Source: a virus
Taxonomy: Duplodnaviria > Heunggongvirae > Uroviricota > Caudoviricetes
DNA: 21,396 nucleotides
Reading direction: 5' to 3' (one strand)
IMG/VR virus record: IMGVR_UViG_2531839486_000009
The notes beneath the pieces are model-generated. The model was given only the letters and a program-made list of their open reading frames with translations. It ran no database searches and was not told the origin of the DNA. Below are positions 1,971 through 4,807 of this stretch, piece after piece. Each line of letters starts with the position of its first letter. Position 1 is the first letter of the stretch. The position numbers and the translations under genes are program-made.

Positions 1971-2345
1971 ATGCTCATAGATTTGGTTTTACCTTACCCG
2001 CCGACGGTGAACACCTACTGGCGACGCCGTGGCAGCACATATTTTGTCTCAAAAGCCGGTGAGCGTTATCGCCGGGCTGTGGCGCTTATTGTTCGCCAGC
2101 AGCGGCTGAAATTAAGCCTGTCCGGAAGGCTGGCGATAAAGGTGATTGCAGAGCCACCGGATAAGCGTCGTCGCGACCTGGACAATATCCTGAAAGCACC
2201 GCTGGATGCGCTGACGCATGCGGGAGTGTTAATGGACGATGAGCAGTTTGATGAAATCAATATCGTTCGTGGTCAGCCAGTATCTGGTGGACGTATGGGG
2301 GTGAAGATTTACCCCATAATGCATGAAGAGCAGGTCAAAAAATGA
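1971..2345 (+). CDS. rusA: Holliday junction resolvase RusA
   Basis: 124 aa; AAGAGG RBS before ATG 1971. Translation contains ...PPDKRRRDLDNILKAPLDALTHAGVLMDDEQ..., matching the conserved RusA core (PDRRRRDLDN...DALT.AG...DD) as I recall it from E. coli RusA. Confidence 0.9.
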   Translation: MLIDLVLPYPPTVNTYWRRRGSTYFVSKAGERYRRAVALIVRQQRLKLSLSGRLAIKVIAEPPDKRRRDLDNILKAPLDALTHAGVLMDDEQFDEINIVRGQPVSGGRMGVKIYPIMHEEQVKK

Positions 2346-3163
2346 AACTGGAAGATTTACCGAAATACTACTCCCCAAAATCCCCTTGCCTGACCGATGC
2401 ATCGGCCTCAACGTCAAAAGATGCGCTGAGTATCACTGATGTGATGGCCGCGCAGGGCATGACACAGAATCGGGCTGAGATGGGGTTTTCTGCGTTCCTG
2501 GGGAAAATGGGCATCAGTATGAATGACAGGGCGCGGGCAACAGAATTACTGGCAGATTATGCACTCAGTCGGTGCGATCGTGTGGCGGCGTTGAGAAAAC
2601 TTCCGGCAGAAATAAAACCGTTAGTGATGCGCATTATGGCTTCGTACGCTTTTGAGGATTATGCCCGCAGCGCAGCGAGTAAAAAGCAGTGCCCTTGTTG
2701 CTATGGGGAAAAATTTATTGAAAGCGTAGTTTTTACAAACAAGGTCCAGTATCCGGATGGTAAGCCGCCGGTATGGGCAAAGTGTACGAAAGGTGTGTAT
2801 CCGTCTTACTGGGAAGAATGGAAAAAAGTCAGGGAGGTGGTAAAAGTTGCCTGTCCGGAGTGTGGCGGAAAGGGTGAGGTTTCCACCGCCTGTAAGGATT
2901 GCCGTGGGCGTGGTGTCGCCATTCATCGTGAAGAGTCGGTAAAACGTGGTATGCCTGTTATCAGAGACTGCCAGCGTTGTGGTGGTCGTGGCTATGAAAG
3001 ACTACCATCAACGGAGGCATTTAATGCTATATGCGAGGTGACAAACCAGATAACACGCGCGTCATGGGAAAAAACAGTTAAGAAATTCTATGATGCGCTG
3101 GTGACCCGGTTTGATATTGAAGAAGCATGGGCTGAGCGGCAGTTAAAAAAGGTAACTAGGTAA
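2342..3163 (+). CDS. late-gene antiterminator Q-like protein with zinc-finger motifs
   Basis: 273 aa; start overlaps rusA stop (ATGA). Sits immediately upstream of a pR'-like promoter and tR'-like terminator, the invariant position of Q. Contains CPCC plus three CxxCxGxG motifs. N-terminus MKLEDLPKYYSPKSP... resembles Q/QuuQ-type proteins as I recall them. Confidence 0.65.
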   Translation: MKLEDLPKYYSPKSPCLTDASASTSKDALSITDVMAAQGMTQNRAEMGFSAFLGKMGISMNDRARATELLADYALSRCDRVAALRKLPAEIKPLVMRIMASYAFEDYARSAASKKQCPCCYGEKFIESVVFTNKVQYPDGKPPVWAKCTKGVYPSYWEEWKKVREVVKVACPECGGKGEVSTACKDCRGRGVAIHREESVKRGMPVIRDCQRCGGRGYERLPSTEAFNAICEVTNQITRASWEKTVKKFYDALVTRFDIEEAWAERQLKKVTR

Positions 3164-3168
3164 CAAGG

Positions 3169-3196
3169 TTGATTTTTCCGGAATCTGTGGTAAATT
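3169..3196 (+). promoter_or_regulatory. pR'-like late promoter (sigma-70; -35 TTGATT, 16-nt spacer, extended -10 TGgTAAATT)
   Basis: Seen directly 6 nt after the Q stop. The -10 hexamer TAAATT is the same as lambda pR' as I recall it. Confidence 0.55.
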
Positions 3197-3245
3197 CGTC
3201 ATAACGATGGGCGTTTTATGCCTGGCGTTAGAAGAGTTTCTACAA

Positions 3246-3268
3246 CCCGCCGCTGAGCGGGTTTTTTA
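3246..3268 (+). terminator. tR'-like intrinsic terminator
   Basis: cccgc-cgctga-gcggg hairpin followed by tttttt, about 50 nt downstream of the predicted late promoter. Confidence 0.55.
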
Positions 3269-3306
3269 TTGCGAAATTAATTACGGACCGTTATTATTCT
3301 GCTCCC

Positions 3307-3382
3307 GGCCCTTTAGCTCAGTGGTGAGAGCGAGCGACTCATAATCGCCAGGTCGCTGGTTCAAATCCAGCAAGGGCCACCA
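3307..3382 (+). tRNA. tRNA with CAT anticodon (tRNA-Ile2-like or tRNA-Met)
   Basis: Cloverleaf read by eye: acceptor GGCCCTT/AAGGGCC, D-arm GCTC..GAGC, anticodon loop CTCATAA, T-arm GGTCGCTGGTTCAAATCCAGC, CCA encoded. Resembles E. coli ileX-type tRNA from memory. Confidence 0.85.
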
Positions 3383-3483: not shown

Positions 3484-3560
3484 GCGTTGTTAGCTCAGCC
3501 GGACAGAGCAATTGCCTTCTAAGCAATCGGTCACTGGTTCGAATCCAGTACAGCGCGCCA
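3484..3560 (+). tRNA. tRNA-Arg (anticodon TCT)
   Basis: Acceptor GCGTTGT/ACAGCGC (one G-U pair), D-arm AGCTCAGCCGGACAGAGC, anticodon stem-loop ATTGC-CTTCTAA-GCAAT, T-loop GGTTCGAATCC, CCA encoded. Confidence 0.85.
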
Positions 3561-3697
3561 TATTCATTCTTCCAGATTCCTTCCGGCAGAGCCTTATACT
3601 GAAATATACCTGGCTCAGGATATTGTTGAAAATATTATATGTTTGTCAAAAATAAAAGTTCTGTTAAGTATTGATTGAATATTTGTTATACGGTCTA

Positions 3698-4024
3698 ATG
3701 GTTTTTTCAGCATTAAATATTTATCATTCATATGGTGTGGGTAGAGTGAATATTGATGAGGCGTCGGGGTGTTTCATCCTTAGGCAGCGTATTGATATAG
3801 TCAATGCAGCACGAGCAAAGGCCTTCAGCCGTTTGACAGTTTTGTTCTGTACTCCTGATCGTCTTTCGGGAAGAGACGTTATTATTCTGAATAGTGATGC
3901 TATACAGAGGGTTTGCGATGAGTTCATGGTTGCTAATTCAGAATTATTTGCTCTTGTTCAGGAGTACAACAGAATAGCCAGGACCTGTGGTATGGATGAA
4001 CTTCGGATTACTCATCTGGGGTAG
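3698..4024 (+). CDS. hypothetical protein in AT-rich moron island
   Basis: Tool ORF 3671..4024. No convincing SD before any candidate start (TTG 3671, ATG 3698, GTG 3746). No motif recognised. Confidence 0.3.
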   Translation: MVFSALNIYHSYGVGRVNIDEASGCFILRQRIDIVNAARAKAFSRLTVLFCTPDRLSGRDVIILNSDAIQRVCDEFMVANSELFALVQEYNRIARTCGMDELRITHLG

Positions 4025-4416
4025 ATACATATCTGGATTATCACCTGTTACGGTAAAAAGTGATTGCTTACTGTTTTTGTGAATGGCATTGCAGCAGCCG
4101 GATAATGTCAGTGCTGGCTGACGGTGTGCTGGTGGCGGGTGTGGTGGTTGTTGCTTTCCCGTTGCTGAAAAAGAAAACGCCAGACTGTTAGCCGGGTATC
4201 AGTTAGCGGGAGAAATTTTTAAATACTTCACAATTCAGGCGGTTGACTGTTGTCTGGTTTGCGGGGAGTTTGTTAAAAGAAACTGGCATGGTGAATCCCC
4301 CTGTGCGGTGGGGCAATCAGCGAGTAGGTATATGGGATAATCGCGGATTCAGGTGCTGGTACTGAATTCACCGGGAGGCACCCGACACCATGCAATGGCA
4401 CATAGCGCCACTCTCC

Positions 4417-4440
4417 AGCCCCTCTCCGGAGGGGCTGTTT
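4417..4440 (+). terminator. GC-rich hairpin with downstream T-rich tract (terminator-like)
   Basis: agcccctc-tccg-gaggggct is a perfect 8-bp stem; followed by gtttatattgatttt. Lies about 35 nt beyond the 3' end of the minus-strand gene 4472..4807. Confidence 0.45.
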
Positions 4441-4471
4441 ATATTGATTTTGTCAGATGTGAGTAAACTCC

Positions 4472-4807
4472 TTATGGACTTTGTTGTTTTAGTCCATAAG
4501 GACATATTTGCAGAGTGCAACGGTTATTAAAGCATTCATTCAATACGTTATCTGTATTTGTAGGGCATTCCTGGCTGTTTTTGATTAAATTCCAGAATGT
4601 TTTATTGAATGGTACTACGTTGTAAATGGTTACAGGTAGCACTTTGTTATTGAGCATGATGCCTGTGTGAGTCAGTGTAAATATACTTTCAGGAGGTAAG
4701 AAAGCATCCGATTGATACCAGATTATTAATTTTATTTTACTCCATATGACTGAAAAAGATATTCCGCATGATGGCTGGATAACTGTATCAATCACAATCC
4801 ACTTCAT
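4472..4807 (-). CDS. hypothetical protein (111 aa), orphan antisense moron gene with Cys-rich C-terminus
   Basis: Minus-strand ORF with a near-ideal RBS (AAGGA, 6-nt spacing, from + strand ctttcctt at 4811-4818) and a plausible AT-rich promoter containing TATACT upstream. C-terminal C-x10-C-x4-C-x4-C cluster. Confidence 0.6.

Follow-up and report, generated by a model that had tools for sequence, protein, structure and literature searches.

The open reading frame (ORF) at positions 2342–3163 of the window, the 21,396-nt stretch of Caudoviricetes DNA analysed here (IMGVR_UViG_2531839486_000009), encodes a full-length homologue of λQ. It lies on the + strand and specifies 273 residues (codons 2342–3160). 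With a probability of roughly 0.9, we take its product to be a lambdoid late antiterminator, a long form of the λQ family that would act like λQ, that likely carries two zinc ribbons and that contains a modular insert. The gene itself is already known, as phage and RefSeq entries at 99.5–99.9% identity bear the annotation antitermination protein Q. The finding adds little in itself, as the family, the mechanism and the zinc-ribbon arm are textbook matter and solved for λQ. A modestly useful comparative point is the second cysteine-rich module, which is common to QuuQ of E. coli K-12 and to many prophage Qs of E. coli, Salmonella and Klebsiella. Most members of the λQ family have this module, and no solved structure covers it.

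Identity of the Q gene

The start codon of the gene overlaps the stop codon of rusA (ATGA). A Pfam scan of the ORF gave PF03589 (Antiterm) at 185 bits against a cutoff of 26.7 (E = 2.6e-55); the only families found at E ≤ 0.01 were PF03589 and PF00684, with no match to the Q21 family (PF06530) or to the Q82 family. PHROG 127, "anti-termination protein Q-like", matched at E = 1.7e-110. In a search of the PDB the best matches were λQ chains (7ubm at E = 1.4e-40, then 4mo1 and 7ubj, down to 2e-20), which align to residues 1–113 and 182–273, and with a profile of the family the λQ match rises to E = 1.2e-64. The AlphaFold2 model, built on 107 homologues, has a mean pLDDT of 83. In Foldseek its top match is 7ubn_Q (E = 2.7e-13, target-normalised TM-score 0.73), and the first eight matches are λQ throughout. 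The first-pass annotation had called the protein a Q-type antiterminator. The Pfam, PDB and Foldseek matches bear this out, as does the canonical place of the gene between rusA and a pR′-like promoter and terminator.

The ORF could also be read as a decayed or non-functional piece of prophage, or as an accessory protein of DnaJ type, the true Q being encoded elsewhere, but this is very improbable. The K-12 homologue, YdfT/QuuQ, sits in the cryptic prophage Qin, and the gene is seen mostly in prophages, as such a reading would have it. However, the reading frame is unbroken over its full length and keeps all the functional segments of λQ, records of sequenced E. coli phages (vB_EcoS-640R1, mEp460) contain the gene, and the remaining window is an intact late region. 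The Pfam scan gives the ORF its two families only, the two genes 5′ of it encode DUF968 and RusA, and a search for a separate Q found no other Q family, the upstream gene that bears the name "Q" being DUF968/YdfU.

Segments of the protein and their counterparts in λQ

Homology to the ORF spans the whole length of λQ (PDB 4MO1, 7UBJ–7UBN), and the two proteins share the torus segment, the four-helix body with its helix-turn-helix, the zinc-ribbon arm and the C-terminal helix. Residues 1–113 (2342–2680), which comprise the N-terminal segment and the first body helices, align without gaps to λQ 1–113. In λQ, residues 1–44 form the torus of the RNA exit channel (PMC9388147). The alignment shows the equivalents of λ G39, L202 and T206 to be kept in the ORF. 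The model is of low confidence at residues 1–30 and helical from 31 to 108. The arm, a zinc ribbon, occupies residues 182–218 (2885–2995) and corresponds to λQ 116–152 in the PDB-search alignment; the arm of λQ contacts positions 11–13 of the Q-binding site, σ region 4 and the β′ zinc-binding domain (PMC9388147). The C-terminal body with the helix-turn-helix follows at residues 219–273 (2996–3160), as placed by the λQ alignment and by model helices at 223–233 and 239–272.

Outside the insert the identity to λQ is ~40%. The tip of the arm reads TELWG in λQ and SVKRG in the ORF, and the promoter spacer of the window, the presumed Q-binding element, differs in sequence from that of λ. The main difference is an insert of ~68 residues that λQ lacks, between its residues 113 and 116. 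Among the other Q proteins, the Q21 (PF06530) and Q82 families are functional analogues of the ORF, late antiterminators loaded at a σ-dependent pause. The three families (λQ, Q21 and Q82) are not homologous (PMC9388147).

Late promoter, pause element and proposed mode of action

A pR′-like late promoter is found at 3169–3196 (+) by alignment to λ pR′, with a −35 element TTGATT (3169–3174), a 16-nt spacer TTTCCGGAATCTGTGG (3175–3190), which is the presumed Q-binding element, and a −10 element TAAATT (3191–3196). A simple promoter scan did not list 3169–3196, and the assignment comes from the alignment to λ. The σ-dependent pause element AACGAT (3203–3208) and the following GGG (to 3211, +) begin 6 nt past the −10 element as in λ. 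The −10 hexamer and AACGATGGG (from 3203) coincide base for base with λ pR′ at identical spacing. A tR′-like intrinsic terminator (3244–3269, +) follows, with its stem at 3244–3263 and then a T-run. The region had been proposed earlier as pR′-tR′ at 3169–3268; its −35, −10, AACGAT and stem-loop are all present, and the T-run extends to 3269. The position of the gene and the layout of promoter, pause element and terminator are those of λ, with AACGATGGG equally spaced. The layout of promoter and pause element recurs after ~40 related Q genes in many genera of Enterobacterales, and the spacer is nearly invariant 3′ of window-like Q genes, again in many genera.

Because the ORF is homologous to λQ, its action may be modelled on the λQ loading complex (PMC9388147). 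By this analogy, the helix-turn-helix body and the zinc-ribbon arm would bind the Q-binding element in the late-promoter spacer (3175–3190), and Q would engage σ70-RNA polymerase paused at AACGAT (3203–3208). The N-terminal ~44 residues may then refold with NusA to form a torus inside the RNA exit channel. The polymerase would read through the terminator at 3244–3269 and go on to transcribe the tRNAs, the lysis cassette, and the head and tail genes.

The promoter-to-terminator transcript would be ~67 nt long (3203–3269, +). In Rfam it matches isrK below threshold (16.6 against 50 bits), and a Trp-leader match is also sub-threshold. The 5′ part of the transcript contains AACGATGGG...YCGTT, an AACG/CGTT inverted repeat, which is conserved 3′ of λQ family genes, λ included. 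At many Enterobacter, Kluyvera and Silvania loci (L006–L014 and similar), the stretch from the Q stop codon to the pR′ −35 element has an inverted repeat (for example AGCTCACG...CGTGAGCT), 0–40 nt past the stop codon; it is absent from the window.

Cysteine knuckles

The protein contains four cysteine knuckles, all on the + strand: knuckle 1, C117-P-C-C120-YGEK, a degenerate CxxCxGxG (2690–2713); knuckle 2, C171PECGGKG (2852–2875); knuckle 3, C184KDCRGRG (2891–2914), which corresponds to λQ C118/C121; and knuckle 4, C210QRCGGRG (2969–2992), which corresponds to λQ C144/C147. Shuffling the protein 200,000 times with its composition preserved never produced three exact CxxCxGxG motifs. The ORF has three exact motifs and the degenerate CPCCYGEK. 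In most relatives there are four exact ones, and in most knuckle 1 is a full CDCCxGxG. Among the 107 homologues, all eight cysteines (C117, C120, C171, C174, C184, C187, C210 and C213) are fully or almost fully conserved; C171, C174 and G176 are invariant across those sequences, while in many distant relatives knuckle 3 reads CxC.

The first-pass annotation had placed three CxxCxGxG repeats plus a CPCC at 2690–2986. The motifs and the start at 2690 hold, but the end falls 6 nt before the end of the last motif, and CPCC is not a separate feature, being the CxxC of the degenerate fourth repeat (CxxCxGxK). Its suggestion of a zinc module engaging DNA or RNA polymerase agrees with λQ, in which the counterpart of this module touches both (PMC9388147).

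Knuckles 3 and 4 contain the four cysteines that ligate zinc in the λQ arm: C184, C187, C210 and C213 align to the arm ligands C118, C121, C144 and C147, and they are invariant in the 107 homologues. The corresponding two knuckles of λQ bind one zinc jointly (PMC9388147). The protein had also been held to be a type distinct from λQ. At the family level this is wrong, since motifs 3 and 4 are λQ's own arm ligands. The ORF aligns to λQ over residues 1–113 and 182–273, and λQ itself has two CxxCxGxG motifs (CRDCHGTG and CGRCKGVG), which are motifs 3 and 4. What does set the ORF apart is the 68-residue insert, and the long form so created is the commoner state of the λQ family.

Resemblance to DnaJ and anti-TRAP

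An alternative is that the four knuckles form a true cysteine-rich domain of the DnaJ type, with interleaved zinc sites (knuckles 1+4 and 2+3) and a common descent with the chaperone domain. We consider this unlikely. The cysteine-rich domain of DnaJ (PF00684; PDB 1EXK) is like the ORF in its repeated CxxCxGxG, its four knuckles and, presumably, its two zinc ions. PF00684 matches residues 171–218 at E = 1.9e-6 and TIGR02349 (DnaJ_bact) matches at 1.4e-6, but the scores are 28.4 bits against a gathering score of 32.7 and 27.9 against 377 bits. Foldseek finds DnaJA2 (7zhs) with a probability of 0.87 as the next class after λQ, yet at E = 0.6, and the family profile matches the DnaJ structures 2ctt, 7zhs and 1exk only at E = 0.49–2.5. 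Some Q relatives are named "chaperone protein DnaJ" in database records. Precomputed assignments on the Q proteins of database records include PF27659.

The arrangement of the knuckles also argues against DnaJ-type pairing. Pfam aligns knuckles 2–4 of the ORF to DnaJ repeats 1–3, and the order of linker lengths is unlike that in DnaJ. The λQ counterparts of knuckles 3 and 4 share one zinc, a point against interleaved sites as in DnaJ. Moreover, such sites would have to be re-paired at every loss of the insert, and at least three such losses seem to have occurred. The secondary-structure pattern of the AlphaFold2 model favours placing knuckles 1 and 2 together. Judged by this pattern and by comparison within the family, the pairing in the ORF is likely sequential (1+2 and 3+4), unlike the interleaved pairing of DnaJ (1+4 and 2+3). 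The ORF knuckles are embedded in a helix-turn-helix transcription factor, unlike those of DnaJ, and a Pfam scan for the J domain found neither it nor the DnaJ C-terminal domain in the ORF.

Anti-TRAP (RtpA; PDB 2BX9) offers a further likeness, as it has two adjacent CxxCxGxG-like motifs ~10 residues apart that hold one zinc. It matches residues 167–195 at E = 0.03, and the spacing from knuckle 2 to knuckle 3 (9 residues) is that of the single zinc site of anti-TRAP, the matches being weak; such a 2+3 site would suit the interleaved pairing. NCBIfam NF058604 (RtpA) scores 21.4 bits against a cutoff of 65. Anti-TRAP is a 53-residue protein with one zinc, and its function is unrelated to that of Q. 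Assignment to the DnaJ family was rejected, as the sequence, profile and fold searches were all sub-threshold, and the likeness was kept as one of motif. The DnaJ-like zinc-finger signature proposed earlier for this protein therefore stands at the level of the motif, while homology to the family is not supported, given the PF00684 score below threshold, the E-values of 0.5–2.5 to DnaJ structures and the missing J domain.

The insert and a putative second zinc site

The insert, seen as a gap in the alignment to λQ, spans residues 114–181 (2681–2884, +) and consists of knuckle 1, a long β hairpin and knuckle 2. It sits at the junction of the λQ body (residues 61–113) and arm (114–152). Residues 110–112 and 117 of λQ contact the β′ zinc-binding domain in the loading complex (PMC9388147), and the equivalents of these contacts flank the insert. 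In the model, two strands of equal length (125–136 and 159–170) are separated by a loop with short helices, and the block-mean pLDDT of the strand region is 76–88. If paired, these strands would put knuckles 1 and 2 side by side at the base of a hairpin, as in a zinc ribbon, from which we infer a second Cys4 site. Most likely, then, knuckles 1 and 2 bind a further zinc ion at the foot of this variable β hairpin, so that the protein is predicted to carry tandem ribbons. The conservation of all eight cysteines was counted in favour of this site. Short forms of the family lack knuckles 1 and 2 together and still have 3 and 4, the pair seen with zinc in crystal structures of λQ (PMC9388147). Across the family, 6 to 55 poorly conserved residues separate knuckles 1 and 2, and the hairpin is mildly basic, with a mean net charge of +1.5.

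A search for homologues of the insert alone (residues 110–191) returned only fragments of Q proteins and the module in no other protein context, within the limited sensitivity of a word-indexed search. A profile–profile comparison of insert and arm aligned just a 10-residue knuckle, with a probability of 13%; it gave no evidence for the insert as a duplicated arm and was also counted against a DnaJ assignment. A literature search on CXXCXGXG antitermination, QuuQ and the λQ zinc finger returned nothing on the long-form insert, and experiments on the ORF or on any long-form Q were not found in the literature.

Promoter specificity

The insert might instead read DNA as an additional head and so lengthen or alter the Q-binding element, which would make the protein a new specificity class of Q. 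Its position between the two DNA-contacting parts of λQ, the body and the arm, and the mildly basic charge of its hairpin would suit such a role, as would the fact that window-like Q genes share a conserved promoter spacer of their own, TTTTCCSGAATCTGTG. We regard this as quite unlikely, because comparisons between loci separate the insert from the spacer. The Q of a Pectobacterium polonicum prophage (L034, 1501–2313) is essentially λQ with a 64-residue, four-knuckle insert: it is 84% identical to λQ outside the insert region, with 95 of 113 N-terminal and 46 of 55 C-terminal body residues in common. This long-form Q goes with a lambda-like spacer (AGTTGAATAACATTGGG, against TATTGAATAAAATTGGG in λ) as well as a lambda-like body. 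The converse holds for the Q of L079, which has its insert in common with the window protein (45 of 68 residues) and matches it at 16 of 55 C-terminal body residues; its spacer is unrelated.

The spacer classes follow the Q clade, window-like Qs having TTTTCCSGAATCTGTG and QuuQ-like Qs TTCAAAAAA..TGG. Over 990 pairs, the identity of the spacer correlates most strongly with that of the C-terminal body (ρ = 0.70) and most weakly with that of the insert (ρ = 0.46), so the spacer tracks the helix-turn-helix region best. Shared ancestry confounds all these correlations, although they rank in the expected order. The −35/−10 spacer has the usual 16–17 nt, which leaves no room for a longer Q-binding site, and the hairpin, at 6 to 55 residues, shows little conservation of sequence. 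By these sequence comparisons, the two loci and the order of the correlations, the insert behaves as a modular indel and does not determine DNA specificity or the promoter that is recognised.

The most plausible function left for the insert lies at the hinge, where it may be structural or touch the polymerase. Speculatively, it may have a structural role, stiffening or extending the hinge beside the β′ zinc-binding-domain contacts. The L034 Q is in effect a natural construct of λQ plus insert on a lambda-like pR′.

Distribution and evolution of the long form

An exhaustive search of 1.84 billion cluster representatives found only 237 relatives at E ≤ 0.001. Close protein clusters count their members in the thousands. 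To the annotated Q of vB_EcoS-640R1, vB_EcoS-813R8 and mEp460 the gene shows 99.5% identity, and 2,495 of 5,426 complete E. coli genomes contain it at ≥80% nucleotide identity, under the label "antitermination protein".

The long form, with all four knuckles, is present in ~30 of 35 full-length clusters at 50% identity, with four or five lambda-like short forms, and is by this count of sequences the majority state of the λQ family. E. coli K-12 YdfT/QuuQ (Qin prophage) has four knuckles and the long-form architecture at 40% identity over its full length. The Qs of mEp237, ES18, SfV, Fels-1 and phiEt88 match the full query at 37–54% identity and were judged long forms by length, their gene footprints being 750–830 nt against 621 nt in λ; those of λ, P22, HK022 and HK620 are of the 207-residue form. 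YdfT/QuuQ and the Qs of these five phages (250–276 aa) differ from the ORF in their shorter or different hairpins and in their promoter spacers. They are annotated as antitermination protein Q, and apparently no structural study covers them.

In a neighbour-joining tree of body and arm columns, computed without bootstrap, short forms occupy three separate positions among the long forms, and the nearest neighbour of λQ is a long form. This is suggestive of a long-form ancestor, of which λQ would be a deletion derivative. A wider proposal is possible, though doubtful: that the two-zinc arm is ancestral and dominant, that λQ is the deletion form, and that the second ribbon adds a contact with RNA polymerase, σ region 4 or NusA that changes loading. 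If true, the extra contact would alter loading, for example through a different NusA dependence or different hinge dynamics, and the current λQ loading structures would describe just a minimal variant. Q controls late-gene expression in lambdoid prophages, Stx-converting phages included, and the role of the second module could therefore merit a targeted experiment.

A group of loci (L055–L075) carries λQ genes with λ pR′ on short, low-coverage contigs from assemblies labelled Bacillota, Pseudomonas, Bradyrhizobium, Kitasatospora, Shewanella and others. These look like contamination of the assemblies with λ DNA.

Genes surrounding Q

The window represents the late region of a lambdoid phage, in the order DUF968/YdfU, RusA, Q, promoter, terminator, two tRNAs and then the lysis genes. 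Beyond the tRNAs it continues with a P21-type holin, DUF1327, lysozyme, Rz, terminase, and head and tail genes. The DUF968/YdfU ORF (1134–1958, +) lies two genes 5′ of Q and has a counterpart in L001 at 1568–2617. It is called "Phage antitermination protein Q" in the mEp460 record, a label that looks wrong, as Pfam gives DUF968 and a weak HNH-like match.

The first gene past the terminator is tRNA-Met(CAT) (3307–3382, +) and the second is tRNA-Arg(TCT) (3484–3560, +). Placed directly past the terminator, both would by analogy be Q-dependent. Their position is that of the ileZ/argN/argO tRNAs in Stx phages. The CAT anticodon of the tRNA at 3307–3382 could equally mean a tRNA of the Ile2 type.

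The ORFs at 3671–4024 (+, 117 aa) and 4472–4807 (−, 111 aa) have no Pfam match and lie between the tRNAs and the holin, the usual position of cargo genes ("morons"). Between the tRNAs and the lysis cassette there is also a full-length match to the STnc100 sRNA (Rfam RF02076) at 4257–4446 (+), with 123 bits against a gathering score of 47.
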